Below, piece after piece: positions 4,545 to 32,000 of a stretch of 32,000 nt of DNA. Position numbers and translations under genes: made by a program. Source of the stretch: Nitrosopumilus adriaticus (GTDB lineage Archaea > Thermoproteota > Nitrososphaeria > Nitrososphaerales > Nitrosopumilaceae). Numbering within the stretch: the first letter of the stretch is position 1; each line of letters starts with the position of its first letter. The DNA is taken from positions 1,078,147-1,110,146 of the forward strand of contig NZ_CP011070.1 in the NCBI RefSeq assembly GCF_000956175.1, given 5' to 3'. A model generated the notes under the pieces. The model did no database searches, had not been told where the DNA came from, and saw only the letters and a list, made by a program, of their open reading frames with translations.

Positions 4545-4563
4545 ATTTCTTTTCTTTTTTTAG

Positions 4564-16902: not shown

Positions 16903-16949
16903 AATAGAATGCCCCCCGTTTACTCGTAAATTTAGACGGTAGACTAGGA
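16903..16949 (+). repeat. casposon left terminal inverted repeat
   Basis: AATAGAATGCCCCCCGTTTACTCGTAAATTTAGACG is the exact reverse complement of 29964..29999 (39 nt if the ambiguous A run from 16900 is included). It continues to 16949 with two mismatches (16939, 16942). Confidence 0.95.
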
Positions 16950-17061
16950 TTATGACGAGAGTTCGTTGGAAAGTCTTTAAGATTAAGTATGATTATGTGA
17001 AATTTGGTGAAAACATATTAGAGATATTCTAAAAAATAATTTAACTTTAGTTGTTGCAATA

Positions 17062-17727
17062 TTGACTTTCTTTGCTTCAATGATGATGTTAGCAACTGCC
17101 TTAGAAACTAGTGATACCACAACACAAATGCTTGCAGAAATCGGGAGATTGGTAGAAAATAACAATAAACAACTTGAAGTTTTAGAAGATACTGGAGATA
17201 CCATAGAACACCAAAGCATTCTAAGTGAATACAATTCTTCAGGTCCATTTCAAGTAATAATTTCAAGATGTAATGATAGTGAAAAATGGGACGCGGATGG
17301 AAATTATTTAGGTATGTTTTATAGCTTTAAACCAACTGTGATTACAAAAGATGGAAATGAATCCACAGTACCATTTAGAATATTTGCAGATTTAGAATTC
17401 AGAGACAAAGAAAACAAAAGAGATGGAGTGGCAAGAAATGACTTTGCGGAAATAGGACTACCATCTTATGTATATAATATTGAAAAATCAGGAGGAGATA
17501 TAGAAGTTAATATTCAATCCATTTTAGATTATGCTAAAGAATCCGGATTTGAGTATGTGCATGTTGATTTTGAGTATGATTTTCAGCCTATATCCCCTGT
17601 AAAAGATAATGCAGGATTTGGTCAACAACAAGATGGGAAGCCATTTCCAATGGTATTGTTCAAATTACATGATAATGGAAAATGGCATGTTGAAGACTTT
17701 GAAGAACAGTATCCTTGTAGAAGTTGA
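17062..17727 (+). CDS. hypothetical secreted/membrane-anchored protein
   Basis: 221 aa with a hydrophobic N-terminus (MTFFASMMMLATALE) and no other motif. Preferred over the overlapping antisense ORF 16983..17234. Confidence 0.45.
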   Translation: MTFFASMMMLATALETSDTTTQMLAEIGRLVENNNKQLEVLEDTGDTIEHQSILSEYNSSGPFQVIISRCNDSEKWDADGNYLGMFYSFKPTVITKDGNESTVPFRIFADLEFRDKENKRDGVARNDFAEIGLPSYVYNIEKSGGDIEVNIQSILDYAKESGFEYVHVDFEYDFQPISPVKDNAGFGQQQDGKPFPMVLFKLHDNGKWHVEDFEEQYPCRS

Positions 17728-17754
17728 TTGATTCAGAAACTCATTTAATGAAAT

Positions 17755-17955
17755 TCAAGAATTTTTTGGTTTGATTGTAACCATTTTATCTGAACCTTTA
17801 CACAATTGATTTCCTTTGTGATGTTTGTGGATTTTGATTTTGTACGTTTTCCATTCTTCAGATCCTAAATCATCTTCGTATGTATGATTAATCGTTTTGA
17901 CCTTATGGCCATGTTTCCATTGTTGACACCATGCACAGAAGACTTTTTCATTCAT
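17755..17955 (-). CDS. small zinc-ribbon-like protein (single copy of the module duplicated in 13453..13896)
   Basis: 66 aa. CAWCQQW...IKIHKHHKGNQLCKGS has the same CxxC...HHK...C-x-G/S-S/G pattern. Confidence 0.5.
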   Translation of the reverse strand: MNEKVFCAWCQQWKHGHKVKTINHTYEDDLGSEEWKTYKIKIHKHHKGNQLCKGSDKMVTIKPKNS

Positions 17956-18162
17956 TTTGTAATGTCCTACTTTACTCTGCCAATTAATCTAAACACTGCC
18001 TTTTCTGAATGTAGAATTTGTTCTAGCAATTTTAATTTGTTCTTCTGAAAGATTTTCCCCATTGGTGTATTCTTCCATCAAATTCCCAGGATCATCTTAT
18101 TGTGCTGATTTTATTTTCTAGATCATTAATAAAATGAATATTTACAGATAATTCTATAGCAG

Positions 18163-18909
18163 TCATGATTTTGAATAATTTTGATTCCATTTTTTTGTCT
18201 GAGTTTTAAAAAATTCAATTGCCTTTTTGTTTTTGATTTTACCTTTTCTATACCACATTACATCTTCTGACATATTATAAGCACAATTTATGAAATGCCA
18301 TGTCGTATCCCATAATGTTTCAAAATAATCCGCATTTTTTCTAATTTTATGAGGGGTTTGAAGAGTGTGTACTAGAGTATTTCTCAATGAAAAGATCTCT
18401 TGAAATTTATCCCAATTATCAATAAGATGGATTTCACTTTCAGGAACTATATTGTTTTTTATTCCAAACCTTATCCAATCATGTAATGTATCAAAAAAAT
18501 TCAAACCCAATAGATTGGAAAATACTTTGTTTATTTCAGAAGAATTTTGAAAGTTAAAGTTTGCAGCTATAATTTTTCCCTTGGTAAAATCTTTCTTTTG
18601 AATTTCTTTAAAATATTTTATCGGAATAGGAATTTCAGAACCCTGAAACAATCGTTCAACATTTAGATCATAATCATCTACTAACCAAGCAATATTATTT
18701 TGTAGATATGATTCAACTATAGTCACCAATCTTATAATGATGTATTTTTTAAGTTGTTTTGAGATTTTTACATTTCGTTTATCTAATTCACGTATTACAT
18801 CTCGTAATTCATTATCCATTACATTTGATAATGTGGAATTTGGAATGAGTTTATCAAAATTTTTAATTTTATGAATATCTAACATTGGGTGTTTTCTAAG
18901 TTTTGTCAA
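18163..18909 (-). CDS. hypothetical protein with a HEPN-like R-x4-H motif (tentative)
   Basis: 248 aa. FSLRNTLVHTLQ fits the HEPN Rx4-6H signature within a helical context. It starts 5 nt downstream of 18915..19595 on the same strand. Confidence 0.4.
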   Translation of the reverse strand: MTKLRKHPMLDIHKIKNFDKLIPNSTLSNVMDNELRDVIRELDKRNVKISKQLKKYIIIRLVTIVESYLQNNIAWLVDDYDLNVERLFQGSEIPIPIKYFKEIQKKDFTKGKIIAANFNFQNSSEINKVFSNLLGLNFFDTLHDWIRFGIKNNIVPESEIHLIDNWDKFQEIFSLRNTLVHTLQTPHKIRKNADYFETLWDTTWHFINCAYNMSEDVMWYRKGKIKNKKAIEFFKTQTKKWNQNYSKS

Positions 18910-18914
18910 ATTGA

Positions 18915-19595
18915 TTATCCCTCAATTGGTTCTAACGGTTTTAAGTCCATTGAAGTCAAGCCTTTATCTATCATTTCCTTAATACCTCCAAAATGTTTAG
19001 TTAATGTCTCATCATTATAAAATGAAACAATTCCATTTAGGGAGAGAATTGCTTGGTCAGTAAGAGAGGACGAATATTGATTTGTAACATTTTGGATTTC
19101 CTTTAACCATGTATCTACCTGTTTTCGTTCATCTGCGATTCTTTTGTCATGATCAGATAGGCGTTCAGACTCGGGTGTAAGTAATAATTTTCTCAAGTCA
19201 TACATTGAAGAATATGCTAAGACACATGGGATGTGCATTGCATCCTGAGCTGCAAATTTCTTCTGAATTTTGTCATGTTCTTCTTTTTGCAAATACTTTT
19301 GTTGATAATCCTCAATTTTTTTCACCTCTTCAAGAATTTCAGTAATCCTATCTTGTTGCTCTTGTGATTTTTCTCTTTTACCTCCTTCATAGATTAAGAT
19401 AGCAGATGCAATAGCAAGGCCTATTCCTATTTCTACTACCAGGGTTGCCCAGTTTGCCACATCCCAACCATCTTTGACTGGAATTTGTAAAGAAAAAGAC
19501 AACACAGTCAAAGAAACTCCAATCCCGACTGCTATTCCAATGAATACCCATGAAATTTTTGCAGTAATTGGGTCCCTTTCCCTATTTTTCTTCAA
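18915..19595 (-). CDS. membrane protein with two N-terminal TM helices and a C-terminal coiled-coil/helical domain
   Basis: 226 aa. TM segments are ISWVFIGIAVGIGVSLTVLSF and ATLVVEIGIGLAIASAILIY, followed by a charged heptad-like region (EQQDRITEILEEVKKIEDYQQKYLQKEEHDKIQKKF). Confidence 0.55.
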   Translation of the reverse strand: MKKNRERDPITAKISWVFIGIAVGIGVSLTVLSFSLQIPVKDGWDVANWATLVVEIGIGLAIASAILIYEGGKREKSQEQQDRITEILEEVKKIEDYQQKYLQKEEHDKIQKKFAAQDAMHIPCVLAYSSMYDLRKLLLTPESERLSDHDKRIADERKQVDTWLKEIQNVTNQYSSSLTDQAILSLNGIVSFYNDETLTKHFGGIKEMIDKGLTSMDLKPLEPIEG

Positions 19596-19653
19596 TTTCT
19601 AATAATTTTACAAAATAACTAGTAATTATGATATTCGTACAATGTTATAATCT

Positions 19654-19850
19654 GTAACAAATAGCTACAAAAGCTAATTGTAGCTATTTGTAGCTCTTTT
19701 GTTACGAATGAAACGTTGTTTCAAACAGCTACAATTCATGCGTAATTAGCTACAAAAGCTGTTTTTAGCTATTTGTAGTGCGTGACAATCCAAAAACAGA
19801 GATATTTTATTACAGAATCAAATTAGTTACAAAAACTAATTGTAGCTAAA
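19654..19850. repeat. iteron-like array of the TAGCTACAA / TTGTAGCTA motif in both orientations
   Basis: Forward copies at 19662, 19727 (AGCTACAA), 19747 and 19824 (variant TAGTTACAA). Reverse copies at 19678, 19688 and 19840. TAGCTATTTGTAG lies at 19766. The hairpin-capable unit TAGCTACAA-N7-TTGTAGCTA (19662..19686) recurs at 19824..19848 with two mismatches. The outer inverted repeat is GTAACAAA (19654) / TTTGTTAC (19698). Confidence 0.8.
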
Positions 19851-19914
19851 TGTTCTGTTTTGAAACAAAATTAAGTAATTTTGGAATGAAATAACATAAA
19901 ATCATCTAATTTTA

Positions 19915-20068
19915 TAATTGTAAAATTTACAATCTGCTATTATTGATAGAATTTGTTTACGTCAAAAACTTACGTAAATCTTTACGCAGTAAAGTTGTAA
20001 ACTTTTTCAAATCAGTAAAATTTACAATATTTTACTAACAAATTTACACATTATTTACTAGTAAATAC
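19915..20068. repeat. dense TTTAC/GTAAA motif array, including a perfect 14-nt direct repeat GTAAAATTTACAAT
   Basis: GTAAAATTTACAAT at 19920..19933 and 20015..20028. There are more than 10 further TTTAC or GTAAA pentamers (GTTTACGTC, CTTACGTAAATCTTTACGCAGTAAAG, TTGTAAAC, TTTTACTAAC, AATTTACAC, TTATTTACTAGTAAATAC). The same pentamers occur in the casposon TIR (CGTTTACTCGTAAAT). Confidence 0.7.
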
Positions 20069-21853
20069 TCAAATTTGCTCTTTAGTAAAATGATTTAAAG
20101 AAATTGGCATGGAATTATTGTATTGTTTTTGATTAATATCATTAATTTTTCCTAACCATAATCTCTTTCTGTCTGCATTGAGATTTACTTTTTTTGTTAT
20201 AGTCATAATTTTCCCGATATCTTTGATATTATTTTGAATAATCCCCGAACGTAGTCTTGTGTTTCTTTTAATGGCAATTTTATAGAATAGTTTATCATCC
20301 TTCTCAAATGTTTCCAAGTGTTCGATCTCTTTAGAACCTAGTTTACCAAACCCTCTTTGTTTCCAAACACCATTGAATCGATAAAAACCATTTTGTAGGT
20401 AAAATGTATCATTTGCAGCTCCATCAAATGAAAATTCTCCTAGTTTCTTTGAATTAATGTTTAGTTTCTTTGTAACACAGATAGAATCCGTTGCAAATGC
20501 TATGGTTTGTTTCTCTAGATTGTTCTCTGTAATGAATCGGTATAGTTGTGCTCTAGTATGCCCTGTAATTGATGCAAAAATTACAGGATTGAATAAATTT
20601 CCGATTATTCTGTTTACTTTTTGCCCAGTTTTACCATAAATAGAATTGAGAATTATTTTGAATGGTTTTTCTAAAGGATTATTTTCATTTTTGAGTTTGA
20701 TGCGTTTTTCATAGAGGGATTCTATGAATTTGCAGTATGGTTTTATGGTGTTGTTAGGCACAAATTGATATCCTTCAAGAATCCTGTACTGAGAGTCATC
20801 TCTACAGGCTTGAAGTTCTGCTAACGTACAATATGTGATAAATTTCCCTGAAGGGAATAAAATATTCTGATTAGCCCTAAATGCAAAAGGTGGAATTATT
20901 TCATCATCTGGAATATCTGCTAAAATCTTGAAGAATCCTAGTTTGGCTTTTTCATGAATTGATTTTCTTTTTACCCATTTACCATTATCAAGATCAGGTA
21001 GTTGGGATATTGCATATGGATATGCAGAATTGATATCGTAAAGGTAAGATTTACCGACAAATCCTCGTTTTATCATCTCAAATCTTCCTCCAAAATAACT
21101 TCGAAAAGCTAAATCTTGAATAGAGTAAGGAATAGAGTCAAACTTTGGAAAGAATACATCATTATTGATTAGAACTTTTTCTGCTAGATATCCTGAACTT
21201 GGCCACTTTGCAGGATAAAATGAAAATGCATTATGGAATAAGGATATCCAATGTTCCGCCAGTTTCTTAGTTAGGATGCAATCTTGAATACAATAATTTC
21301 TAATTTTCTTCTTGTTATGACTGTAAAACCATTTAGAGAATTCTGCACGTTTTGTTTTTAGTGATAAATACTCTTCAGGTAAAGATTCTATATTTTCTTC
21401 ATATGCAGCAGCTAATGATTTACCAAAAAACTGAGCAATATCAAAAAACAATACACTATGATGTCCTTTTTTAATTCGAAGTAATTTTGATGGGATGTAT
21501 TCTAGTTTGAAATCATTCCAGTGAAATTCTAGTTTTCTACTCAAATTGTATCTGAACAGTTCTTGATCAAGAAGTTTGAGAATTACTTCAGCATCATATG
21601 CTAAATTGTAAAAGAAATTCCAAGTATTTTGATATTTTTTGGAGAATAGAAATTGTATTACCGATTCAGGAGTAATATTATCAAGAAATAATCCATCAGA
21701 ATCAGCAATCAGAAAAATATCTCCATGACGTGTTTCAGTATCTAATGCATTGATTTTCCGCAATTTTGAGTATGCAGAATTACGATTTTGAGGCCTTTTT
21801 GTGCGTAATCGGCCCAAATCTTTGTAATCTGTTACGGGGATGGATTCTGCCAT
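20069..21853 (-). CDS. polB: protein-primed-type family B DNA polymerase (pPolB), copy 2 (casposon)
   Basis: 594 aa. Exo I ALDTET, Exo II FYNLAYDAEV, Exo III YCIQDCIL, motif A YDINSAYPY, motif B LNSIYGKTGQ, motif C FATDSI. Long identical blocks are shared with 4887..6665 (TWNFFYNL, KKGHHS, FFDIAQF, YFGGRFEM, IGNLFNP). Confidence 0.9.
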   Translation of the reverse strand: MAESIPVTDYKDLGRLRTKRPQNRNSAYSKLRKINALDTETRHGDIFLIADSDGLFLDNITPESVIQFLFSKKYQNTWNFFYNLAYDAEVILKLLDQELFRYNLSRKLEFHWNDFKLEYIPSKLLRIKKGHHSVLFFDIAQFFGKSLAAAYEENIESLPEEYLSLKTKRAEFSKWFYSHNKKKIRNYCIQDCILTKKLAEHWISLFHNAFSFYPAKWPSSGYLAEKVLINNDVFFPKFDSIPYSIQDLAFRSYFGGRFEMIKRGFVGKSYLYDINSAYPYAISQLPDLDNGKWVKRKSIHEKAKLGFFKILADIPDDEIIPPFAFRANQNILFPSGKFITYCTLAELQACRDDSQYRILEGYQFVPNNTIKPYCKFIESLYEKRIKLKNENNPLEKPFKIILNSIYGKTGQKVNRIIGNLFNPVIFASITGHTRAQLYRFITENNLEKQTIAFATDSICVTKKLNINSKKLGEFSFDGAANDTFYLQNGFYRFNGVWKQRGFGKLGSKEIEHLETFEKDDKLFYKIAIKRNTRLRSGIIQNNIKDIGKIMTITKKVNLNADRKRLWLGKINDINQKQYNNSMPISLNHFTKEQI

Positions 21854-22155
21854 ATCACATCCGGTATTGATACTGATTTTCCTTTACGTCTCTGAGATAG
21901 TTCTGAGCGAATTTGTTTGTAGGATAAATTGGGAAAGTTATTTCTAATTTGTCTAATATAGTTGTGATATCGTCGGAGTTTTCCTGCTCTAGATTTGTTT
22001 TTGTTTTGTTTTTTCTTTTCTTTTTGTGGAATGTCTAATTTTTTTAGTTTAGATTTGATTTGTTTACGTAATTCTTTGACATGTTTATTGTTTGGAAATA
22101 ACTTTAATGCTTCTAGTTGTTGCAGTAACTTTTGTTTATCTTTCATAGTAATCAC
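21832..22155 (-). CDS. small, very basic protein overlapping the pPolB start (homologue of 4564..4908)
   Basis: 107 aa with KLLQQLEALKLFPNN, NFPNL and SIPDVIWQNPSP. It overlaps the pPolB ATG by 22 nt. Confidence 0.7.
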   Translation of the reverse strand: MITMKDKQKLLQQLEALKLFPNNKHVKELRKQIKSKLKKLDIPQKEKKKQNKNKSRAGKLRRYHNYIRQIRNNFPNLSYKQIRSELSQRRKGKSVSIPDVIWQNPSP

Positions 22156-22170
22156 AAAAAAAGAAAAGAG

Positions 22171-22500
22171 TTAGAAGACTAACTCAAATCTTCTAATTGG
22201 TCTTTGATTCTTTGATAGACCTAACCATGTCTTTAAGACAAATTCTTTACCCGGAGTAATTAATTTGTCAGTAATTCCTCGCCTCCAAAGTCTCAGGAGG
22301 GATTCATTTACTGAATCATGGGATTTCAAAGGAAGGATTACTTCATTCCATTCCTTGTCACTTTTTTGTAAAACTACGACATTTGTTGAAAAATCAGTGT
22401 CAAAGGTATCTAGTTCTTTTACCTTAAACTCTACAATGTCTGGTTTTGTTTTTTCATTGGATCTGAATGATCCATATTTTATGTAAGGGATTTCATCCAT
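22171..22500 (-). CDS. conserved pPolB-module protein (homologue of 4215..4544)
   Basis: 109 aa, with LPLKSHDSVNESLLRLW and RPIRRFELVF at the C-terminus. Confidence 0.7.
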   Translation of the reverse strand: MDEIPYIKYGSFRSNEKTKPDIVEFKVKELDTFDTDFSTNVVVLQKSDKEWNEVILPLKSHDSVNESLLRLWRRGITDKLITPGKEFVLKTWLGLSKNQRPIRRFELVF

Positions 22501-22559
22501 GATTAATGTATCATGTTAGAGTTGACATATTCCACCAACATTTTACTAGTCAAAATTAG

Positions 22560-23144
22560 GTGGTAAAGATTAGAATAAACATCAAAAAAGAAATCGTGAA
22601 AATAATTCATGAAAACGAGGGTATTGGCACAAATGAAAGTTTCACTTTATTTAAAAAAACTCATGGAAAGATACTATCCAATCCCACATATCTCAAAAAA
22701 ATTAGAGAGTTAAAAGAAGATAAAAAAATATACGAAATTAAAGATACCAAAGGTCACAAAATAAAACTTGTATCTTTAGCAAGAAAAAAGCAAATTGATG
22801 TTATTTTTAGAGACTATAATCGAGAGTTTAAAAATTTCAAATCTAGACTTGACATATATGATAAATTAAAGCCAAACCTCTTAGATGAACAAAAGATCTG
22901 TCTATTCGCTAATTTCTATACATGTTATTGGATAATGGTGTGGAAATTAAACGAAATTCCTGATTTTTTGGAAAAACCAGCCATAAAACAACTAAAACAA
23001 GATATGAAAGACTTTGAACCTGAATTATTCGTCTATTTTCTAGAAGCTGGAGATTACACTAGAATTACAAGATTAGGTGAAGACGAATTAACTGATCAGT
23101 ATTTTGAAACAATTAAAAAAATCGATCAGATTCTCTTAAAGTAA
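22560..23144 (+). CDS. hypothetical protein, possible wHTH regulator
   Basis: 194 aa with GTG start. It is divergent from the pPolB operon, positionally equivalent to 3321..3881. There is only weak sequence resemblance. Confidence 0.4.
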   Translation: MVKIRINIKKEIVKIIHENEGIGTNESFTLFKKTHGKILSNPTYLKKIRELKEDKKIYEIKDTKGHKIKLVSLARKKQIDVIFRDYNREFKNFKSRLDIYDKLKPNLLDEQKICLFANFYTCYWIMVWKLNEIPDFLEKPAIKQLKQDMKDFEPELFVYFLEAGDYTRITRLGEDELTDQYFETIKKIDQILLK

Positions 23145-23147
23145 ATC

Positions 23148-24224
23148 TTAATTCACTGTTTCAAAGAATTTTTGAGTATTTCGCCATTTGATGTTAGCAT
23201 TAATGTCTAAAACTTTACTGATGTTATTTTTTAATAATCCTGCAGTATTTTGAAATTTTTTCTTTCTTTTTTCAAATTTTACATCTTCAATATAATTATC
23301 TGCAGTAGAGGCCCAATCTACAACCCAAGCATTTTGCTCCAAAGTTTCTTTTGTTGGTATATCATATTTTTTATATCTACTTTCTAATTGAGATTTCGGC
23401 ATATTTTCAATTATCGAATGAGCACTTGGTGCAGCTGAAATTCCAATCCATTGTGGAATAGTATTGTATTCAACTGCTTCATCTATGGCCTTTCCAATAA
23501 TGAATTCATTTCCTTTGTAATAATAGTCTCCAAAAGAAATTGAACCACGAATCGGGCGTTCTAGAATCATACTATCAATTATTGCACTAGAGAGAATCGG
23601 AGATAATTCAAATAATGTTTTTTGTTTATTGTATGGTTGTATAGCAATTATTATTGTGTCAGAAAATGTCATGAATGAATAATCTCTAGTGTTTAATTTC
23701 TTGATTTCTTGTTCAAAATTTTTTGTATAAGTAGACCATGAGTTAATTATTTTGTTTTTCTCTTTTTCTCTATTCCATATTCCTTTAGTTCCTAATGCAT
23801 CTAAGAAGACCACAATTCCTGTTTGTTTTGGTACAGTTTCTGATTTTCTTTGTTGTCTTGCAAGTTTTTTTGATTCAAGAACTGTATTATAAAAATCTCT
23901 GAATTTTTTGTAATGGTCCATCAGGTATTTTGTATCAATATATTCTAGATTTTTTTTAAGAAGTTTTTTACCTAATTTTGTTGTCTGGTAATATCCTCGC
24001 TTAGGAACCGTCACAAGACCTGCATGCTCCAGATAATTCCTTGCCCAAAATGCACGATTTTTTAATTTTGTCTCTGGACCACTTTTTTTGCGTTGATTTC
24101 TTTGCTTTTCAGTAAGTTTGAATTGTTTTGCCAATTTTGTTTCTGCGTCAGAAACTGAGATTTCGTTATTTGATCCTATTTCCAACATAGGCCACATTAA
24201 TCGTTCAAAATCAATTTTTGCCAA
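23148..24224 (-). CDS. Mrr_N-type winged helix fused to a class III nucleotidyl-cyclase-like domain (tentative)
   Basis: 358 aa. The N-terminus (LMWPMLEIGS...AETKLAKQFKLTEKQRNQRKKSGPETKLKNRAFWARNYLEHAGLVTVPKRGYYQTTKLGKKLL) matches the Mrr N-terminal wHTH pattern. The C-terminal half has GIVVFLDALGTKG, SFMTFSDTIIIA and RGSISFGDYYYKGNEFIIGKAIDEAVEY, which resemble the metal-Asp strands and the G..(x)..A.R region of cyclase-homology domains. Confidence 0.4.
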   Translation of the reverse strand: MAKIDFERLMWPMLEIGSNNEISVSDAETKLAKQFKLTEKQRNQRKKSGPETKLKNRAFWARNYLEHAGLVTVPKRGYYQTTKLGKKLLKKNLEYIDTKYLMDHYKKFRDFYNTVLESKKLARQQRKSETVPKQTGIVVFLDALGTKGIWNREKEKNKIINSWSTYTKNFEQEIKKLNTRDYSFMTFSDTIIIAIQPYNKQKTLFELSPILSSAIIDSMILERPIRGSISFGDYYYKGNEFIIGKAIDEAVEYNTIPQWIGISAAPSAHSIIENMPKSQLESRYKKYDIPTKETLEQNAWVVDWASTADNYIEDVKFEKRKKKFQNTAGLLKNNISKVLDINANIKWRNTQKFFETVN

Positions 24225-24259
24225 TTTACAGCTACTTTCTATCAGAAATTAATAACATT

Positions 24260-24330
24260 TCACACCTGCAGGCATAAAGATACATCAAAAAAGTAAACTT
24301 CCTGCTCAATGAGCGATCACACCTTGCAGG
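24260..24330. promoter_or_regulatory. pair of direct repeats TCACACCT(T)GCAGG in the divergent promoter region
   Basis: TCACACCTGCAGG at 24260..24272 and TCACACCTTGCAGG at 24317..24330, between 23148..24224(-) and the methyltransferase (+). The first contains the 8-bp palindrome CCTGCAGG. Confidence 0.45.
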
Positions 24331-24357
24331 ATATACCTATCTTGAAATTATCAAACC

Positions 24358-25200
24358 TTGGCATTAATTGAAAAAGCAAAATCACTAGTTCATCCTAGAA
24401 ACACCCTCAATGATTTGCCCACTGTTGATTGGCTAAAAGCAACTCGTTCATGGTTTATGATGAGGCCAAAAGGGAGAGGTTCAAAAATATCTCATCCTGC
24501 AAGTTTTCCTGAAGAATTAGTTGCAAATTATATTCAATTTTTCACAAAAAAGAATGCACTCGTGCTAGACACCTTCCTAGGTTCAGGAACTACCACTCTA
24601 GTTGCAAGACAGCTGCAGCGAAATGCAGTGGGTATTGAATTAAACAAAAAATATGCTGAATTATCCCAAGAGAGATTAAATGAATTCCCAGAAAATAACA
24701 CAAAACAACTAGTGATTAATGATGATTCTAGAAATTTAAAAAAAATATTCAAAAAACAAGGAATCCCCCAAATTGATTTTTGTATTACATCTCCTCCATA
24801 TTGGAACCAATTAAAAAACAAGGGACTCAAAAATACTGTAGATAGATCAAAGAGTAGAAAAAAATTAAATCTTGATGTCGACTATGGTTCTAATTCAAAA
24901 GACATTGGAATGATTGATGAGTATGATTCGTTTTTAGATGCACAAGATGAAATTTTTGACAAGGTCTATGATCTGATGAAGCCACGAGGGTATTTGCTTG
25001 TAGTTACAAATAATGTCTACAAGGGCGGTAGAATGTGGCCATTAGCATTTGATACGGTAACTAGACTATCAAAGAAATGGGTTCCAAAAGATGAGCAAAT
25101 TTGGTGTCAAGACAGCAGACGATTACATCCATTTGGAATGTTTCATAGTTACATTGGAAACAGAGCACATCACTATTGTTTGATATTTCGAAAGGAGTAA
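24358..25200 (+). CDS. DNA methyltransferase, N4-cytosine/N6-adenine family (PF01555-like)
   Basis: 280 aa. HPASFPEEL, SAM motif LDTFLGSGTT..A..L.RNAVGIEL, catalytic ITSPPYW. Motif I precedes motif IV. The track start is TTG, so the real start is uncertain. Confidence 0.8.
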   Translation: MALIEKAKSLVHPRNTLNDLPTVDWLKATRSWFMMRPKGRGSKISHPASFPEELVANYIQFFTKKNALVLDTFLGSGTTTLVARQLQRNAVGIELNKKYAELSQERLNEFPENNTKQLVINDDSRNLKKIFKKQGIPQIDFCITSPPYWNQLKNKGLKNTVDRSKSRKKLNLDVDYGSNSKDIGMIDEYDSFLDAQDEIFDKVYDLMKPRGYLLVVTNNVYKGGRMWPLAFDTVTRLSKKWVPKDEQIWCQDSRRLHPFGMFHSYIGNRAHHYCLIFRKE

Positions 25201-25243
25201 TACATTCAACAAAATTGATTAAGATCATAAGAGAATATGCACT

Positions 25244-25576
25244 ATGAGTTCCGTTTTACAAATAAATCAGTTTGAATCAAAATTTCAATCTTGTCGAAAT
25301 CATATAAACGGGGAAGGTGGAGAAAAAATCTCTGAACAATACAGAGGCTATGTTTGGAATGATGTAACCCCTGAACCCCATCTGTCAATAGGATTGCCTT
25401 TTGGTCCTGTGGGTTACAATTACTGTGATAGTGGAAGATATATCTATTTGAAAAAAGTGAAAAACCTTCCAGATTCTTCTCCAGATAACGCAAATAGAAT
25501 TCGGGGCAGGATTTTACATGACAGTGTTATGGATTTTTTGATATTTCAAGAAGATATATCGAAAATACTGAAGTAA
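25244..25576 (+). CDS. possible N-terminal fragment of a Cas4-like nuclease (see 25621..26244)
   Basis: 110 aa. YCDSGRYIYLKK...RIRGRILHDSV resembles the Cas4/RecB-family N-terminal Cys...R..Y and G..(I/L)H helix. The downstream ORF's frame is already open from 25522, overlapping this ORF. Confidence 0.4.
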   Translation: MSSVLQINQFESKFQSCRNHINGEGGEKISEQYRGYVWNDVTPEPHLSIGLPFGPVGYNYCDSGRYIYLKKVKNLPDSSPDNANRIRGRILHDSVMDFLIFQEDISKILK

Positions 25577-25620
25577 AAAGTTTAGATGTAAAAAAACATC
25601 TGAATAGAAAAAAAACCAAA

Positions 25621-26244
25621 ATGCTACAAGATATTAAAAAAGAAATATCTAAACCTTCCAATAAATTAAAACAAAAAGAAATCAAAGAAATCCTGAAAGA
25701 TTGTGATTCAGTTCTAGAATTTGAGAGTAATCAATTATCCTCTAGAATTCATTATTTTATTTCTAGAAATGAATCTATCACAAAATCTTCATTGATTCAA
25801 CATTCTGTACCGATAGTTTTGAATGAAGAAATAAAAGAAGCAAAGGCAATGGGATTTGCAGACAAAATAACACCTGATTTTGTTTTTCATAAAGAAAAAG
25901 CAATTGGAGATATGAAAACATATCAATTTGATCAAAAAGATCAATCTTACAAATTAGCAATTACTGGATATGCTCTAGCATATGAAAAACAACACAATGA
26001 AGACATAGATTGTGGATTTATTCTGTATTGTTTACCTCACAAGAATCGGTTTACTCCTTTATTTGAATTAGAAGTATTTCCTATTAGCGATGTTTTACGA
26101 AAAAATTTTATCGAAAAAAGAAATCGACTTGCACAAATGGTATACAAAAAAATTAAACCAAATCTAGCTACTAAATGCCCCGAATCCTGTCCCTATCTTT
26201 CGAAATGCGCTCCTGGAAAAAGTAGAATTGACAAAAATAAATAA
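25621..26244 (+). CDS. Cas4-like PD-(D/E)xK nuclease with a C-terminal Cys cluster
   Basis: 207 aa. Core is PDFVF...AIGDMKT (D...DxK), then YKLAITGYALAYE (Q/Y helix), and a C-terminal CPESCPYLSKC resembling the three-Cys Fe-S ligand motif of Cas4/AddB-type nucleases. Confidence 0.6.
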   Translation: MLQDIKKEISKPSNKLKQKEIKEILKDCDSVLEFESNQLSSRIHYFISRNESITKSSLIQHSVPIVLNEEIKEAKAMGFADKITPDFVFHKEKAIGDMKTYQFDQKDQSYKLAITGYALAYEKQHNEDIDCGFILYCLPHKNRFTPLFELEVFPISDVLRKNFIEKRNRLAQMVYKKIKPNLATKCPESCPYLSKCAPGKSRIDKNK

Positions 26245-27064
26245 AGAATTATTGGATTTTAAGGGTTCTCCAAAAATCATTTTGGAATCATTACAAATTT
26301 TTCAAAAACATCCTAAACAATGGGAAAAAATTCAACAAGAATTAATTCAAATGGCAATTAAAAAAGAAATCAAAGCAATTCCCAGAGTAATTATATCTGC
26401 ATATATTACTCCGATGTTAAGAAATTTGAAATTAATTTATGGTGAAGGCACAGATATTAAAATCACAAATGATGGAACTCAATGCATAGAAGCATTTTTA
26501 AAAAATTCTGAAGAAGGTTATAAAAAAAGACTTGCATATCAAACTATCAAAATTGATGAAGAAAATATCCGATTAATCCCTTATTTAATGAGGCACCACA
26601 ATAAGATTGAAAATTCTGTATCTCTAAATGATTTGAAAGATGAATTGTTCTCTATAGGTGTTCCAAATGCAAAAAAACCTACTCCTGTTGGCAGTTGGAT
26701 TCAACTCCTTACCTTTGTTGAATTGGTGTTTATGTATAATAAAAAATTCTATGTTCGTGAATCGCAGTATGAAACTATGCTCAAAGGAGAAAATAAACCA
26801 AAAAAATCAGATATTGAAAAAGCCTTCAAAAATGCTGCAAATGTACTGAAATCACCCAATACATCTTATGTGTCAATTCCTGAATTCAGAGATCAAGTTT
26901 GTGAAGAATTAAGGATAAGTTCTTTTACATTTTATAATATTCTCAAAAATAATCCTTATAGTATTGGGAAAACCCGATTAATGTTCGCAACTCCAATCAA
27001 GAAGACGCCTGGAGGAATTATAATTGGAAACAAATACTATTATTTTATATCAGTATATCCTTAG
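26228..27064 (+). CDS. hypothetical protein
   Basis: 278 aa with TTG start, overlapping the end of the nuclease gene. Operon position is between the nuclease and the ATPase. No motif recognised. Confidence 0.45.
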   Translation: MTKINKELLDFKGSPKIILESLQIFQKHPKQWEKIQQELIQMAIKKEIKAIPRVIISAYITPMLRNLKLIYGEGTDIKITNDGTQCIEAFLKNSEEGYKKRLAYQTIKIDEENIRLIPYLMRHHNKIENSVSLNDLKDELFSIGVPNAKKPTPVGSWIQLLTFVELVFMYNKKFYVRESQYETMLKGENKPKKSDIEKAFKNAANVLKSPNTSYVSIPEFRDQVCEELRISSFTFYNILKNNPYSIGKTRLMFATPIKKTPGGIIIGNKYYYFISVYP

Positions 27065-27074
27065 TACAATAGAT

Positions 27075-28202
27075 ATGTCTTATTCAAAATTTAATCTAAC
27101 TTCAAATCCTTTCCTTGAAGAAAAACATACTTTTCCAATGGTTGGACGAAAAAAAGATTGGGATAAGATAAAAAATGTGACCGAAGAGTTGCTTACTGCA
27201 GATAGTTGTGGAATTATCACAATTTATGGAGATTATGGAATGGGTAAAACATTCACTTTATTAAAAATGCAAGAAGAATATCAAAAAAATAAAGATTCTG
27301 GTAAAGTTATTTTCTTGAAAACAATTGAAACTGGAATTCCTACAAATTTTTTGAGTGATTTGTTGATTCGAATTACTAGAAATATTGGGAAAGATGAAAT
27401 GGTCAAATTAGCAAAACGTGTTGATTTTGTTTCATTAGATATTGATAATACATTGAAAAATGTTCTGATAAATTTATCTGATGGAAACGAAATTTCTTGG
27501 AAGTGGTTTATTGGAAGAAGTATTACCAACACAGAATTAAAACAAATTCAGGCTGAATTTAAAATCAAAGACAATTATGAAACATTTACCGTTTTCTTAG
27601 ATTTCCTAAAATTCCTCTATGTAGCAGGATGTCAAAATATGATTCTGTTGTTTGATGAATGGGAATATCTACTTTCAAGAGCATCCATTGATCAAGTTAG
27701 AACTATTGTGCGGGATTTACAGAAATTATGGGACGGATATAATGAATGTCGAGCTTCAAATATGAAATTATGTAAAATAATTTTTGTTATTGCATCATCC
27801 ATTGGATCTTGGAGAATCTTCTTAGAGATGATTGATAAAGATGTCAGTAAAAAAGGAGGCGGAGGTACAGAAACTTTTATGAGAAGAATTCCGGAAATGG
27901 CAAAGATTAACTTATCCCCCTTTGCTCTTTCAGACGTAAAAAAATTCATTATTAATAGATTGAAAGAATATCGTTTAAAACCATCAAGTGATGATTTGTT
28001 TCCGCTTACTAATGATTATGTTCAGTTTATCACCGAAATATCCTGGGGAATCCCAAGTAGTATTCTTAGCAAAAGTGCATTAATTATAAAAGAAGCTTCT
28101 GATGGAGAAATTAAACAAGTCACTACTGATTTTTCAAAACAAATTCTGAAAAATCATGGAATTCTACGAGAGTTGGAAGAAGTGGGACCTATTGCAGAAT
28201 AA
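27075..28202 (+). CDS. AAA+/P-loop ATPase (ORC/Cdc6- or archaeal-ATPase-like)
   Basis: Walker A IYGDYGMGKTFTL, Walker B MILLFDEWEY, N-terminal NPF segment. I prefer the ATG at 27075 (MSYSKFNLTSNPF), just after the upstream stop. The track ORF starts at TTG 27024. Confidence 0.7.
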   Translation: MSYSKFNLTSNPFLEEKHTFPMVGRKKDWDKIKNVTEELLTADSCGIITIYGDYGMGKTFTLLKMQEEYQKNKDSGKVIFLKTIETGIPTNFLSDLLIRITRNIGKDEMVKLAKRVDFVSLDIDNTLKNVLINLSDGNEISWKWFIGRSITNTELKQIQAEFKIKDNYETFTVFLDFLKFLYVAGCQNMILLFDEWEYLLSRASIDQVRTIVRDLQKLWDGYNECRASNMKLCKIIFVIASSIGSWRIFLEMIDKDVSKKGGGGTETFMRRIPEMAKINLSPFALSDVKKFIINRLKEYRLKPSSDDLFPLTNDYVQFITEISWGIPSSILSKSALIIKEASDGEIKQVTTDFSKQILKNHGILRELEEVGPIAE

Positions 28203-28213
28203 CAAATTGAATT

Positions 28214-28591
28214 ATGAGTTTTTACATATGTACAGGTAAATCATTAAGAGTTTTTATCAACATCGAAAACTTTCTTAGTGATTCCATTAAATTAAAATTT
28301 TTTTTAATTTTTAAAGAATCAATTAATAAAAAATCATTTAAACTTGATGTTAATTTATCTCCTAATGATGATGGCTTAACATTAACAAAGACCATAATCA
28401 TAAAAGAGCAATTTGAAAATTTCAAAAAAAATGAATCGCTAGGAGTGATCAAAATTAGATCTTCCAAAATCAATAAGGATTTTAATTTGCCTGAAGCTAT
28501 CTGTGTATCACCTGAGGAATCTTCTGATTCGTATCTAGGAGCAAAGGTTACGCTAACGAATAACAATGTTTATGTTCAGTATCGAAAATAA
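28214..28591 (+). CDS. hypothetical small protein (last gene of the plus-strand operon)
   Basis: 125 aa, with an ATG 12 nt after the ATPase stop. The strand choice over antisense ORF 28222..28566 rests only on operon context. Confidence 0.35.
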   Translation: MSFYICTGKSLRVFINIENFLSDSIKLKFFLIFKESINKKSFKLDVNLSPNDDGLTLTKTIIIKEQFENFKKNESLGVIKIRSSKINKDFNLPEAICVSPEESSDSYLGAKVTLTNNNVYVQYRK

Positions 28592-29631
28592 TGGTCAATA
28601 ATTGTCACAATAAAATTTTTCACAATCGTTAATTCTTCTAAATTATTCAATCCAGTTTTCTTTGATCTACCAAACTTAAATTCTACTTCTTTTTTAATTT
28701 GAAAATTCCTCTCCAATTTCTCCAAAAAATTCTTTTTTACTCTATCTGATAGAACTACCATCCCATCCCGAGTATAAACAAAATCAGATAACCTCATCTT
28801 GTATCGATTATTGGTTGCATGTGCAATATCATAAACTGAAGATTCTACTACCCAACGAAATGGTTCTATTACATCATACACTAGTGACATAAATCCCGAA
28901 TGATTCTTGTGCATATATCCAAAGTATGGGTCTAGGCCAAATCCACAGACATACTTGCAAATCTCTCCTGCAAGTACGGAATATCCATAATTTAGCAAAC
29001 CATTGATGGGGTCTGATGCATTTCTCTTTGTTATACGAATAGAGGATTGATTACGAGATTCGAATCCAAATCTCTCATTAAACAGAGTGGCATAATATCG
29101 AAAGTACACATTTGCACTTGATTTCTCTATGGATTCATAATTCTGAATAGTAATTTCAGATATTTTCTTTTGTAATGTTTGAATTATTTTCTCAGAATCT
29201 TTTCTTTCTAATGATTTCAGAAATCTAATCTGAGATTCCAATTTGTCATGAATTGTTTTTCTTGATAACTCTCTACAAACTTCAGGTTTTCGGAAATTAT
29301 CATATTGTGCAATTCTATACTTACTAGCAGTGCTACTCTCCATCACTCCATTGATCAAAGAGATGGGCTTTCCGAAACTATCTGTAATGATGACATTTCT
29401 ATAATGACTAGAAAGTAGTGCTAATGCATCTGTACTAACATAACCTTTTCCTGAAATCAAAATTTTCTCATATGGTAAATTTGTGATAAACCATTCTTCA
29501 GTTTCTTGGGAATGAGAAAAAGGATCAAGGCCATTCTTTAGTATCAGTTTGTGATTTTTTACACTAACTGAAACTCCATAGCCTGTTAAGACCTTGATGT
29601 TATAGTGGTTTTTTCTTCCTCTTAGGGTCAT
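28576..29631 (-). CDS. cas1: Cas1-family integrase (casposase)
   Basis: 351 aa. Cas1 catalytic-domain motifs NGLLNYGYSVLAGEI, GLDPYFGYMHKNH and LVYDVIEPFRW. The N-terminal beta-rich domain is VLTGYGVSVSVKNHKLILKNG. It is a large ORF close to the right TIR, and no CRISPR array or cas2 is nearby. Confidence 0.9.
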   Translation of the reverse strand: MTLRGRKNHYNIKVLTGYGVSVSVKNHKLILKNGLDPFSHSQETEEWFITNLPYEKILISGKGYVSTDALALLSSHYRNVIITDSFGKPISLINGVMESSTASKYRIAQYDNFRKPEVCRELSRKTIHDKLESQIRFLKSLERKDSEKIIQTLQKKISEITIQNYESIEKSSANVYFRYYATLFNERFGFESRNQSSIRITKRNASDPINGLLNYGYSVLAGEICKYVCGFGLDPYFGYMHKNHSGFMSLVYDVIEPFRWVVESSVYDIAHATNNRYKMRLSDFVYTRDGMVVLSDRVKKNFLEKLERNFQIKKEVEFKFGRSKKTGLNNLEELTIVKNFIVTIIDHYFRY

Positions 29632-29890
29632 CTTTAGGAAATAAACCCATTTTCAACTCCAAGGCAGCAGTGTATTTGCTGTATGCGGACAATGCTTTGC
29701 TCATATTGTCTGCCATTCTTACTACAATCTTTACTAGATCAAGTGTGTAATCAGATGATTCTATTGAATCCATAGTTTTAGGATCTTTTGTAGTTGTTAG
29801 TTTGTCATGTTCTGCAAAAGATTCATTGACTTTGGCATTTGCATCCTCAACTGCCTCTCTGAGTTTTTCAAGTTTGGTTTTTCTTGTCAT
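29600..29890 (-). CDS. hypothetical helical protein upstream of and overlapping cas1
   Basis: 96 aa, charged and helical (KLEKLREAVEDANAKVNESFAEHDK). The 32-nt overlap with the cas1 start suggests co-translation. Confidence 0.45.
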   Translation of the reverse strand: MTRKTKLEKLREAVEDANAKVNESFAEHDKLTTTKDPKTMDSIESSDYTLDLVKIVVRMADNMSKALSAYSKYTAALELKMGLFPKDDPKRKKKPL

Positions 29891-29952
29891 TAAGAAACCA
29901 TGATGAACATTATGATCTTAAAGAATTTGCAAAAAATAATAATCTGAAAAAC

Positions 29953-29999
29953 TTCCTAGTTATCGTCTAAATTTACGAGTAAACGGGGGGCATTCTATT
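29953..29999 (-). repeat. casposon right terminal inverted repeat
   Basis: Reverse complement of 16903..16949; perfect over 29964..29999. Confidence 0.95.
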
Positions 30000-30018
30000 T
30001 TTACTCTTTATCAATAAA
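29998..30018 (+). repeat. target-site direct repeat, aEF-2-proximal copy
   Basis: TTTTTACTCTTTATCAATAAA is identical to 16882..16902. The first 2 nt overlap the ambiguous end of the TIR. It contains the aEF-2 stop codon (30001..30003) and codons for FIDKE. Confidence 0.9.
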
Positions 30019-32000
30019 TTCGTTAACGCCTGGTGGATCTGGTGCAAGGCCTTTTCTCTTTCTAATATCGGCAACTGCTGCAGATAACATAGATTTTGGA
30101 ACTTCAGTCCATTCCTTAAAGGAGGTGTTCCATGTTGCACGTCCTGCTGTCTGACCTCTCATTTCTTCAGATAATGTGAATGTTTCAGAAGCTGGAATCT
30201 CACCAGTGATGATACTTGATGCACCCTTTTGTGACATGTCAAGTACTTTGCCTCTCTTTCCAGAAAGAACTGTTGCGACGTTTCCAACCAAATCAGTAGG
30301 AACACGAACTTCAATAGCTAAAGTTGGCTCTAATACTGCAGTTCCCGCAGTTAGTAATGCGCCCATACATGCTCTACGAGAAGCAGGACCCAATTGTGAG
30401 AGTCCTCTGTGAGCTGTGTCTTCATGAGGAACAAAGTGAGTAAAGATAAACTTGCAATCCCTCATCTGTTCTTTACAGAGAGGTCCTTCCTTCATTACTT
30501 CTTCAAATCCAGAATTGATTGAATCAGTTGATTCCTGTACAAACTGCACACCCTTAGTTCCGTTAATCAAAACATTTCCACGAGAATCAAATTTCATAAC
30601 CCTCTTAATTGTATCAGTATCCCATCCAGCTTTCTTTAGTAGTTCTGCAACAACCTTCTTGTCTTTCATGTCACTGATTTCACCAGTTCTTAGCATGTGA
30701 GCAATTTCAGGCTCTAGTGGTTCTACTTTCATGAAAATTTTATTGTGTCTGTTTGGAGATTTTGCCATAATTGGTTCACATGGACCCTTAACAGTTTCTC
30801 TATAGTTAATCAAAGGTTCAGATGTTACAATTTCACATTTTGCATCTTGAATTCTATGTGTAGCAACATCAAGATGTAAAACTCCCATTCCCGCAACAAT
30901 TGTCTCACCACTTTCCTCATCGATTTTGACGATAAGGTTTGGATCTTCAATTGTTAATTGCTTAAGAATTTCAACAAGTTTAGGTAAATCTTTAGGATGC
31001 TTTGGCTCTATTGCAATTTGAACTACAGGTTCTGAGACATAGTGAACTCCTTCAAACATTGGAATATCTTTAATAGATGATAAAGTATTTCCTGCCCTAG
31101 CTTCAGTTAATCCAAGTAATGCAGGAATGTTTCCAGCTCCGAGTTCTCCGACTTGTTCTCTTTGGTTACCCATAAAGAAATTTACAGATTGTACACGTCC
31201 CTCTCTTTTTGCATCAATAATGTTAATTGTTTGTCCGTCTTTGATTTTTCCTGAAAATAATCTACCAATAGCAACAGGACCAGCTGCAGGATCTAACACC
31301 ATGTTTACAATCATCATAATTGTTGGACCTTCATCACTGCATGCAAGCAATGCTTTTCCAACATCAGATTCCAAATCACCTTTCCAAATTTGAGGAATCC
31401 TATATTTTACGGCTTCATGTGGTGCTGGATGATGTTTTACAACCATTCCAAGTACTGCATCAGCTAGTGGTGCTTTTTCTACTAACTCTTCAACTTTTTC
31501 ATTTTCATATGCATCAATGACGTCTTTAAATGAAATTCCACGCTCTTTCATCAAATCAAGATTAATTGCCCATCTATCCTTTGCAGAGCCAAATGTTACA
31601 CTTGCATCTTGGATTGATACTTTCCATTTTTCTTTGTATTCAGGTTCTGCATATGTGTCAATTAACTGATTAAAGTTTGATACAACATCTGCTAATTGCT
31701 GTTGCATTTTTTCAGGAGTTAATCTTAGTTCTTTGATGAGTCTATCAACTTTGTTGATAAACAAAACAGGTTTTACACGTTCTTCAAGAGCCATTCTTGT
31801 TACAGTTTCAGTCTGAGTCATAATTCCTTCAACTGCATCACATACTACAACTGCACCGTCAATTGCTCTGAGGCTTCGAATAACCCTTCCACTAAAATCT
31901 ACGTGTCCAGGAGTATCAATCATGTTTATGACATACTCTTTATCATTTTTTGAAAAGTGTAATGTGACATTTGCTTGGTAAATTGTAATTCCTCTTGCTT
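30001..32000 (-). CDS. fusA: translation elongation factor aEF-2 (5' end beyond window)
   Basis: The track ORF starts at an internal Met (MIDTPGHVDF). My translation upstream stays open to 32000 (..ARGITIYQANVTLHFSKNDKEYVIN-MIDTPGHVDF, the G2/G3 GTPase motifs). NKVDR is the G4 motif, and a diphthamide-site-like HEDTAHRG is present. The gene is visibly less AT-rich than the inserts. Confidence 0.95.
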   Translation of the reverse strand, partial: ARGITIYQANVTLHFSKNDKEYVINMIDTPGHVDFSGRVIRSLRAIDGAVVVCDAVEGIMTQTETVTRMALEERVKPVLFINKVDRLIKELRLTPEKMQQQLADVVSNFNQLIDTYAEPEYKEKWKVSIQDASVTFGSAKDRWAINLDLMKERGISFKDVIDAYENEKVEELVEKAPLADAVLGMVVKHHPAPHEAVKYRIPQIWKGDLESDVGKALLACSDEGPTIMMIVNMVLDPAAGPVAIGRLFSGKIKDGQTINIIDAKREGRVQSVNFFMGNQREQVGELGAGNIPALLGLTEARAGNTLSSIKDIPMFEGVHYVSEPVVQIAIEPKHPKDLPKLVEILKQLTIEDPNLIVKIDEESGETIVAGMGVLHLDVATHRIQDAKCEIVTSEPLINYRETVKGPCEPIMAKSPNRHNKIFMKVEPLEPEIAHMLRTGEISDMKDKKVVAELLKKAGWDTDTIKRVMKFDSRGNVLINGTKGVQFVQESTDSINSGFEEVMKEGPLCKEQMRDCKFIFTHFVPHEDTAHRGLSQLGPASRRACMGALLTAGTAVLEPTLAIEVRVPTDLVGNVATVLSGKRGKVLDMSQKGASSIITGEIPASETFTLSEEMRGQTAGRATWNTSFKEWTEVPKSMLSAAVADIRKRKGLAPDPPGVNEFIDKE

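Follow-up and report, generated by a model that had tools for sequence, protein, structure and literature searches.

The gene cluster of casposon NitNF5-C2

The window analysed here, 32,000 nt of AT-rich DNA (GC ∼30%) from Candidatus Nitrosopumilus adriaticus NF5, contains the casposon NitNF5-C2 and, within it, a plus-strand gene cluster (24358-28591) which combines a methyltransferase, a Cas4-like nuclease and a P-loop ATPase and converges on the casposase gene. The element itself is known: Krupovic et al. (2019, Environ Microbiol, PMC6563490) placed it at CP011070:1095040..1108154, corresponding to window positions 16894..30008 (CP011070 coordinate = window coordinate + 1078146), in tandem with NitNF5-C1, with both casposons inserted into ef-2. 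Its terminal inverted repeats (TIRs), ef-2 target-site duplication (TSD), Cas1, protein-primed PolB (pPolB), methyltransferase, 'Cas4' and predicted ATPase (arCOG06460), as well as the tandem arrangement with NitNF5-C1, have all been published, and NitNF5-C2 was credited with 'two Cas4 homologues' for which a role in integration was suggested (PMC6563490). Hence, the locus, its Cas4 homologues and the idea that Cas4 serves the casposon are already in the literature (PMC6563490).

Six plus-strand open reading frames (ORFs) were verified in the cluster: 24358..25200, 25244..25576, 25621..26244, 26228..27064, 27024..28202 and 28214..28591. They represent five genes (Table 1), with 25244..25576 and 25621..26244 belonging to a single Csa1 gene. 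An earlier reading made from the sequence alone (hereafter, the sequence-only reading) had counted five to six tightly packed ORFs ending inside the 3′ end of the minus-strand cas1 gene. The coordinates were confirmed, as was the overlap of the last ORF with cas1 by exactly 16 nt; all the ORFs are present, and the number of genes is five. Its assignments of a methylase, a Cas4-like nuclease and a P-loop ATPase were likewise upheld in profile searches (PF01555, Csa1/PF06023 and AAA_22/BrxC_BrxD/ATPase_2, respectively).

The boundaries of the 13.1-kb element are given by a 58-nt inverted repeat (16884-16941 / 29961-30018, 86% complementary) and by a direct repeat of the 3′ end of the gene for elongation factor 2 (EF-2) at its edges (16882-16902 / 29998-30018). 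The TSD is 21 bp long, and its right copy encodes the EF-2 C-terminus ...FIDKE*. Thus, the TIRs, TSD, Cas1 casposase and pPolB of a family-1 casposon are all present, in agreement with the published coordinates.

Table 1. Features of the 32,000-nt window, with the cluster first, followed by other features of NitNF5-C2, its target gene and NitNF5-C1
Feature	Coordinates	Strand	Remarks
Small N6/N4-type DNA methyltransferase (putative), 280 aa	24358..25200	+	PF01555 103 bits; PADLOC MTase_II PDLC03353 1.3e-37
Csa1 nuclease gene (Cas4-family, PD-(D/E)xK, Fe-S), frameshifted	25244..26244	+	annotated as 110 aa + 207 aa
T6 homopolymer, Csa1 frame shifts -1	25534..25539	+	∼1103680-1103685 of CP011070
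'Mid' protein, 278 aa, cassette signature gene	26228..27064	+	predicted tandem winged-helix DNA-recognition subunit
P-loop ATPase	27075..28202 (annotated from 27024)	+	BrxC/D, AAA_16, AAA_22-like; distantly ORC/Cdc6-like
Small accessory protein, 125 aa, beta-sandwich	28214..28591	+	3′ end overlaps cas1
Casposase (Cas1) of NitNF5-C2	28576..29631	-	PF01867 162 bits; context, outside cassette
Left TIR of NitNF5-C2	16903..16941	.	inverted-repeat search; TSD copy 16882-16902
Right TIR of NitNF5-C2	29961-29999	.	86% complementary; TSD 29998-30018 = ef-2 3′ end
pPolB (protein-primed type) of NitNF5-C2	20069..21853		PF03175 (DNA_pol_B_2)
194-aa protein	22560-23144	+	NMD3 (arCOG04149) in 2019 table; marginal TFIIE-beta winged-helix match, E 0.02
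Mrr_N protein, 358 aa	23148..24224	-	Mrr N-terminal winged-helix PF14338, 1.7e-21
EF-2 (archaeal)	30001..31923	-	at window end
Second pPolB (NitNF5-C1)	4887..6665
OLD-family nuclease (NitNF5-C1)	7469..9679	-
HNH (NitNF5-C1)	9760..10662
NERD (NitNF5-C1)	11864..12574
Pentapeptide-repeat protein (NitNF5-C1)	13985..15328	-
XerC-like tyrosine integrase (NitNF5-C1)	15608..16780	-	adjoins casposon-type TIR copy 16852-16882

The split Csa1 gene and the cassette in other genomes

The two Csa1 ORFs lie in different frames and match successive parts of one Pfam profile, positions 19-88 (25244..25576) and 114-290 (25621..26244) out of 292. Compared by BLASTP with the intact 330-aa Csa1 of locus L007, which harbors the closest relative of the window cassette, the first fragment corresponds to residues 1-99 (61% identity) and the second to residues 128-328 (56%). 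When the same protein was used as a tblastn query, the alignment of residues 1-99 ended at window position 25540 and that of residues 98-328 began at 25534, with the two abutting inside the run atggaTTTTTTgat at 25534-25539. The Csa1 frame is interrupted here by a -1 shift within the T6 run. One added T, making a T7 run, restores the frame and gives a 333-aa product that aligns end to end with seven intact homologues. This repaired protein shows a single PF06023 match (142.9 bits against a cutoff of 27, profile positions 19-290 of 292), scores 133.2 bits on NCBIfam TIGR01896 against a cutoff of 103.35, and keeps the nuclease motifs TPDF, GDMK and YALAYE together with the Fe-S cysteines in a 1+3 pattern (Cys61 plus a C-terminal C-x4-C-x6-C). 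Judged by the curated cutoffs, the predicted nuclease is a member of the Csa1 family; judged by the alignments, the published 'two Cas4 homologues' of NitNF5-C2 are two fragments of one Csa1 gene.

There are 31 homopolymers of ≥6 nt in the cluster; only the T6 run at 25534-25539 breaks a frame, and no other damage was seen. Because NF5 was sequenced with 454 only, and 454 chemistry tends to homopolymer-length errors, a T7-to-T6 miscall may well underlie the split and is a serious possibility. The platform was FLX-Titanium (PMC4839502), at a coverage of ∼22x as estimated from the read numbers in the same paper. The data fit a genuine and very recent slippage mutation equally well, such that the NF5 copy was either recently inactivated or mis-sequenced.

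Two side observations concern Csa1. Its coding region in the window contains a stable 10-bp hairpin, GUUUAGAUGU-AAAAAA-ACAUCUGAAU, at 25580-25604, and the 100-nt stretch around it has a folding z-score of -3.4. Moreover, the Csa1 proteins of L001 (7467-8426) and L012 (196-1200), both from GC-rich Bathyarchaeia-like contigs, lack the N- and C-terminal cysteines; in this subclade the nuclease motifs persist, but the Fe-S cluster has apparently been lost.

Turning to other genomes, we found seven relatives of the ATPase besides the protein itself in a collection of 5.8 billion proteins, with 38-57% identity. Every contig with such a relative shows the same order: methyltransferase (385-421 aa), intact Csa1 (319-337 aa), the protein that we call mid (222-289 aa), ATPase (358-385 aa) and small protein (126-143 aa). 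A profile built on mid brought in further members, and an exhaustive HMMER search of metagenomes returned 268 representatives of the mid family at E≤1e-3, 125 of them at E≤1e-10, and all four of the distant homologues that we looked up (E 1e-10 to 1e-20) lie between Csa1 and ATPase genes. We fetched 24 related loci, 210 kb in total, 12 of which are distinct metagenomic loci besides the window; all 12 have the order Csa1-mid-ATPase, in most cases with a cassette methyltransferase ahead of Csa1. Far from never being linked outside the window, then, homologues of these genes are linked to each other in every related locus found. The packing of the cluster exceeds chance, given that 12 independent loci have this gene order with junctions mostly of -41 to +18 nt, and the ATGA-type 4-nt overlaps in the cassettes suggest translational coupling. 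A scan with promoter and terminator models gave no enrichment over shuffles; these are bacterial models, not relevant to the archaeal host.

The contigs carrying the cassette are Nitrosopumilales-, Bathyarchaeia-, Methanomethylicaceae- and Thermoproteota-like. Host genes beside the cassettes share 90%-identity clusters with proteins from metagenome-assembled genomes of Bathyarchaeia, Methanomethylicaceae, Thermoproteota and Nitrosopumilales; the cassette is therefore horizontally mobile within Thermoproteota. Its positions fit this picture: in L001 and L014/15 it immediately follows a tyrosine integrase at the island edge beside host genes, and it adjoins a CfrBI-type Type II restriction-modification (R-M) pair in L018, an RHS toxin in L014 and a DDE transposase in L021. 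No relatives of the Cas1 (searched by tblastn), pPolB or Mrr_N protein of the window were found in the 24 loci.

Within casposons, the cassette appears confined to NitNF5-C2. The families of its methyltransferase, Csa1 and ATPase (arCOG00047, arCOG04195 and arCOG06460) occur only in this element among those listed in the available part of the 2019 table of integrated mobile genetic elements (iMGEs); they are outside the family-1 casposon core, not being common to the other casposons listed there. In the paper itself, cassette-type genes of NitNF5-C2 were termed element-specific (PMC6563490). The cassette was not found in IMG/VR viral contigs, phage records or plasmid records, nor in two scans of species-representative genomes, the latter a weak negative in that the NF5 locus itself was also not returned. 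Full-text literature searches found no description of this gene combination. The Cas4 phylogenomics paper goes no further than noting R-M genes beside some solo Cas4 genes in DPANN archaea (PMC5704561).

The first gene of the cluster is where the window departs from the other cassettes. Its methyltransferase has motif I (FLGSGTT) ahead of motif IV (TSPPYW), and among PADLOC models it scores best with Type II ones (PDLC03353). In the other loci, the cassette methyltransferases are mutually orthologous (24-57% identity over the full length), carry the motifs CGSGT and TSPPYGD, and match the REBASE-derived Type II model PDLC03322 end to end (1e-81). The window enzyme lacks the ∼150-aa insert which these proteins have between motifs I and IV and shares only motif-level similarity with them, 25-35% over 50-87 aa. 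By BLASTP it does not match the L007 methyltransferase at all, though the Csa1 and ATPase of L007 are 56-61% identical to those of the window. Going by these comparisons, the window enzyme fills the methyltransferase slot of the cassette without being orthologous to the cassette enzymes; in NF5, the cognate methyltransferase has been displaced by an unrelated small N6/N4 methyltransferase. In the 2019 paper, the gene 24358..25200 is annotated as the tRNA methylase Trm11 (PMC6563490). This annotation is doubtful, with profile evidence favoring a DNA N6/N4 methyltransferase. In both the window and the cassettes, then, a predicted S-adenosylmethionine-dependent DNA methyltransferase with motif I and (S/D/N)PP(Y/F) is present, and the Csa1 nuclease is adjacent in all loci, with the window methyltransferase being the non-cognate one.

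The mid protein had no match in Pfam, NCBIfam or PADLOC, and a sequence search of PDB gave nothing useful for either mid or Csa1. The AlphaFold2 model of mid is confident (pLDDT 93, pTM 0.89) and shows helical modules and tandem winged-helix modules. The top fold match in PDB is the recognition domain of BpuJI (2vla_A; probability 0.99, E 0.046, template-modelling (TM) score 0.40), followed by Nt.BspD6I, and the top match in the viral library BFVD is a FokI-annotated protein (probability 0.97, E 0.17). We therefore predict mid to be a tandem winged-helix DNA-recognition subunit. The mid gene of L007 (2785-3608) is called as two ORFs, of 128 and 123 aa, one corresponding to the N-terminal and the other to the C-terminal part of mid in the window; this is a further case of an interrupted gene among these cassettes, due to decay or an assembly error.

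As for the ATPase, the window protein has the Walker A motif GDYGMGKT and the Walker B motif LLFDEWE, and GDYGMGKT, DEWE and GGGGTETFxRRIP are invariant in the family. Its Pfam matches are AAA_22, BrxC_BrxD and ATPase_2, those of the family BrxC_BrxD (PF10923), AAA_16 and AAA_22; PF10923 is matched by 8/8 proteins, at best with 6e-11 and over a partial profile. Against PADLOC BrxD, the family reaches 1e-8 at best and the window protein 0.027, while SngB and mad8 also match weakly. A PDB sequence search indicated distant similarity to ORC/Cdc6 (E 0.03). The annotated TTG start at 27024 adds 17 residues that are absent from all homologues; translation probably starts at Met18 (27075), in which case the 41-nt overlap with the preceding gene disappears.

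Counterparts of the small protein (126-143 aa, 25-39% identity by BLASTP) occur in L001-L013 and L018, the one in L018 being a positional equivalent only. Only the subclade of cassettes nearest to that of the window has the gene, which L014 and L019 lack; since more distant cassettes do without it, the small protein is an accessory. Its AlphaFold2 model (pLDDT 87) returned generic beta-sandwich fold matches only, with TM <0.5.

Possible function of the cassette

We interpret the cluster as cargo of NitNF5-C2, a portable operon of Csa1, mid, ATPase and small protein which most likely acts in R-M-like defence, and we assign this reading as a whole a probability of about 0.6. The parts of the reading are not equally firm. 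That the cluster is a conserved cassette, carried as casposon cargo and independent of casposition, we consider very probable. We lean, by a smaller degree of confidence, toward defence by an ATP-dependent multi-subunit mechanism resembling R-M. The most specific version is tentative, namely, that the cassette, together with a dedicated methyltransferase and sometimes the beta-sandwich protein, is an undescribed archaeal defence system, a restriction complex gated by methylation and dependent on ATP whose effector is a Cas4-family Fe-S nuclease, spread among Thermoproteota on integrative elements and one casposon.

In such a system, self DNA would bear the mark of the methyltransferase, and the winged-helix mid protein would recognize a DNA site in the manner of a Type IIS recognition domain. 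The ATPase might serve as a nucleotide-dependent switch or loader, with the Csa1 nuclease degrading unmarked DNA. The sequence-only reading had recognized the parts list of an R-M-like module in the methyltransferase, PD-(D/E)xK Fe-S nuclease and P-loop ATPase. This list stands, with a Type IIS-like DNA-recognition protein to be added to it, and the positions of the cassette, integrase-proximal or, in L018, beside an R-M pair, are typical of defence cargo.

Several points weigh against this reading. The defence role is one that we infer, and Csa1/Cas4 enzymes are known as end-processing exonucleases, not restriction endonucleases. Mid resembles Type IIS recognition domains only weakly (E 0.05-0.17, TM ∼0.4), though the matches agree across two libraries. 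PADLOC has no model for mid or the small protein, and the ATPase matches are weak. In the subclade L021-23, there is no cassette methyltransferase directly upstream of Csa1, and methylation-based self-discrimination may therefore not be obligatory. The neighborhoods inspected cover ∼12 of the 268 mid-family representatives. Lastly, the system in the window may itself be non-functional. If the frameshift is real, the non-cognate methyltransferase and the broken nuclease would fit decay after loss of the protecting methyltransferase, which is speculation on our part.

How does the cassette compare with systems already named? The sequence-only reading had recognized no named system in it, and the gene set fits no PADLOC model of one. 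The suggestion of a BREX-like module was not supported. There is likeness to BREX (bacteriophage exclusion) and Pgl systems in that a methyltransferase and a P-loop ATPase are present, 8/8 ATPases match BrxC_BrxD, and weak PADLOC BrxD matches were obtained. However, PglZ, a PglX-type methyltransferase, BrxA, BrxB and BrxL are missing, and the ATPase, at ∼375 aa, matches the BrxC/D profile only in part. Canonical BREX has no dedicated nuclease, whereas the cassette has one. Neither the Pfam and PADLOC scans of the window genes nor the Pfam lists precomputed for the loci contained PglZ. Membership of BREX was rejected on these grounds, with PglZ and PglX absent and the methyltransferases matching Type II models.

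With Type IIS enzymes such as FokI, BpuJI and Nt.BspD6I, the cassette shares the recognition domains that are top matches of the predicted mid fold, and a separate methyltransferase. It differs from them in having recognition and cleavage on separate polypeptides, a nuclease of the Cas4/Csa1 type instead of a FokI-like or fused PD-(D/E)xK one, and an ATPase, and the structural similarity is weak (TM ∼0.4). The logic of a methyltransferase, an NTPase and a nuclease in one operon on mobile islands is common to Type I and Type III R-M, DISARM, MADS and Shango. Unlike these, the cassette has no superfamily 2 helicase/translocase, HsdS, phospholipase D-family protein or DUF1998, and the component families differ. 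Two further assignments were considered and rejected. No HsdS/HsdR or Res match above threshold was obtained in Pfam or PADLOC that would indicate Type I or Type III R-M (ResIII reached E 0.036 on the P-loop), and for MADS or Shango there were only marginal PADLOC matches to mad2, mad8 and SngB.

The nuclease itself resembles Csa1 of type I-A CRISPR-Cas, the repaired protein passing both curated cutoffs (PF06023 and TIGR01896) and having the PD-(D/E)xK motifs and the 1+3 cysteines. In contrast to type I-A systems, the cassette loci have no CRISPR array, cas2 or cas effector genes, and the partners of Csa1 are a methyltransferase, a winged-helix protein and an ATPase. No Cas Pfam families other than Csa1 appear in the gene lists of the 24 related loci. 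A type I-A adaptation module in the window was rejected as well, the only Cas1 being the casposase and no repeat array being reported.

Of the alternatives to a defence cassette, the one that fares best, although we consider it unlikely, is that the cassette serves the mobile elements themselves, the methyltransferase acting in anti-restriction and Csa1, the winged-helix protein and the ORC-like ATPase in replication, recombination or partition. All well-resolved contexts of the cassette are indeed mobile elements or integrase-proximal islands, the ATPase is distantly ORC/Cdc6-like, and archaeal mobile elements have recruited Cas4-like nucleases many times (PMC5704561). Yet the host elements own replication modules, Prim-Pol in L001 and pPolB in the casposon, and the absence of the cassette from viral, phage and plasmid records speaks against such a role. 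So do the classical R-M pair adjacent to it in L018 and its place at the integrase-proximal cargo end, as is typical of defence cargo, as well as the membership of the cassette methyltransferase in a REBASE Type II family.

Much less probable still is that Csa1 acts with the casposase in processing the target site or the ends of the casposon, in analogy to the trimming of prespacers by Cas4 for Cas1-Cas2. Cooperation of Cas4 and Cas1 is well established in CRISPR adaptation, both genes are found in one element, and the last cassette gene runs into cas1. A role of Cas4 in casposon integration has also been proposed (PMC6563490), and the sequence-only reading had raised the same option. The conserved linkage speaks against it: in the 12 loci, none of which has Cas1 or pPolB, mid and the ATPase always accompany Csa1, and a methyltransferase usually does. 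The nuclease moves with the ATPase cassette in elements that are not casposons. Likewise, when co-occurrence of the cluster genes with Cas1 across casposons was considered, only NitNF5-C2 combined them among the elements in the part of the 2019 iMGE table at hand; the other thaumarchaeal casposons listed there are without the cassette arCOGs. Moreover, the Csa1 gene is convergent, not co-transcribed, with cas1, and its ORF is interrupted in the sole casposon carrying it. As part of a portable cassette carried as cargo, Csa1 is therefore probably not a helper of the casposon Cas1 integrase.

Least probable, and hardly to be expected, is that programmed -1 ribosomal frameshifting on T TTT TTG yields full-length Csa1 or that the fragments work as a split enzyme: the site does match X XXY YYZ, the second frame is -1 relative to the first, and both halves are undamaged and conserved as well as the adjacent genes, but Csa1 is uninterrupted in 7/7 homologues inspected, the sole stable hairpin (25580-25604) begins ∼39 nt past the T-run, too distant for a canonical stimulator, and a 454 homopolymer miscall or a recent slippage mutation accounts for the same data more simply.

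Surroundings of the cluster and implications

Upstream of the cluster, the Mrr_N gene is divergent from the non-cognate methyltransferase gene. Its product (arCOG11981) has no Mrr catalytic domain, and the C-terminal 240 aa are without a family match in profile searches; in the part of the 2019 iMGE table seen, arCOG11981 is also found in the thaumarchaeal integrated element ThaMY3-E2. Between the two divergent genes, the sequence TCACACCT(T)GCAGG occurs in two copies ∼58 nt apart (24260-24333). By analogy with the controller proteins of R-M systems, these copies may be operator sites. The NMD3 label of the neighboring 194-aa protein looks unreliable.

Beside the pPolB gene of NitNF5-C2, the intergenic region 19659-19855 has three copies of a 35-nt repeat, AAATAGCTACAAAAGCTAATTGTAGCTATTTGTAG, at spacings of 85 and 77 nt. 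Each copy holds an internal palindrome, TAGCTACAA...TTGTAGCTA, and a regulator or a replication protein may bind to the repeats. Everything to the left of 16887 in the window belongs to the tandem casposon NitNF5-C1, in which a tyrosine recombinase is unusual, yet already published. The 5′ region of the pPolB gene and a small upstream gene are similar between the two casposons (4553-5167 versus 21573-22169; 72-76% DNA identity, inverted), providing a potential substrate for inversion or recombination between NitNF5-C1 and NitNF5-C2.

Regarding the casposon itself, our analysis corrects the record. We deal with the same locus as the earlier paper, which counts two Cas4 homologues (PMC6563490); both derive from a single Csa1 gene, which is split at a homopolymer in a genome sequenced by 454 only, and this gene is part of a cassette that exists outside casposons. 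Reviews have repeatedly invoked Cas4 in casposons to support the casposon origin of CRISPR adaptation (PMC9939771). Belonging to a portable cassette that is found without Cas1, the NitNF5-C2 nuclease therefore provides no evidence for an ancestral Cas1-Cas4 partnership, and for this element the argument from a link between Cas4 and casposons is weakened.

The cassette, which is rare, mobile and apparently undescribed, also offers a testable candidate for a new archaeal R-M-like system whose effector, Csa1, is unusual and whose Type IIS-like recognition subunit stands alone, and it suggests that casposons are able to carry defence-type cargo like other mobile elements. If this is true, Cas4-family nucleases would gain a defence role outside CRISPR, and 'Cas4 in casposons' would stem from defence cargo and not be left over from the ancestral adaptation machinery.

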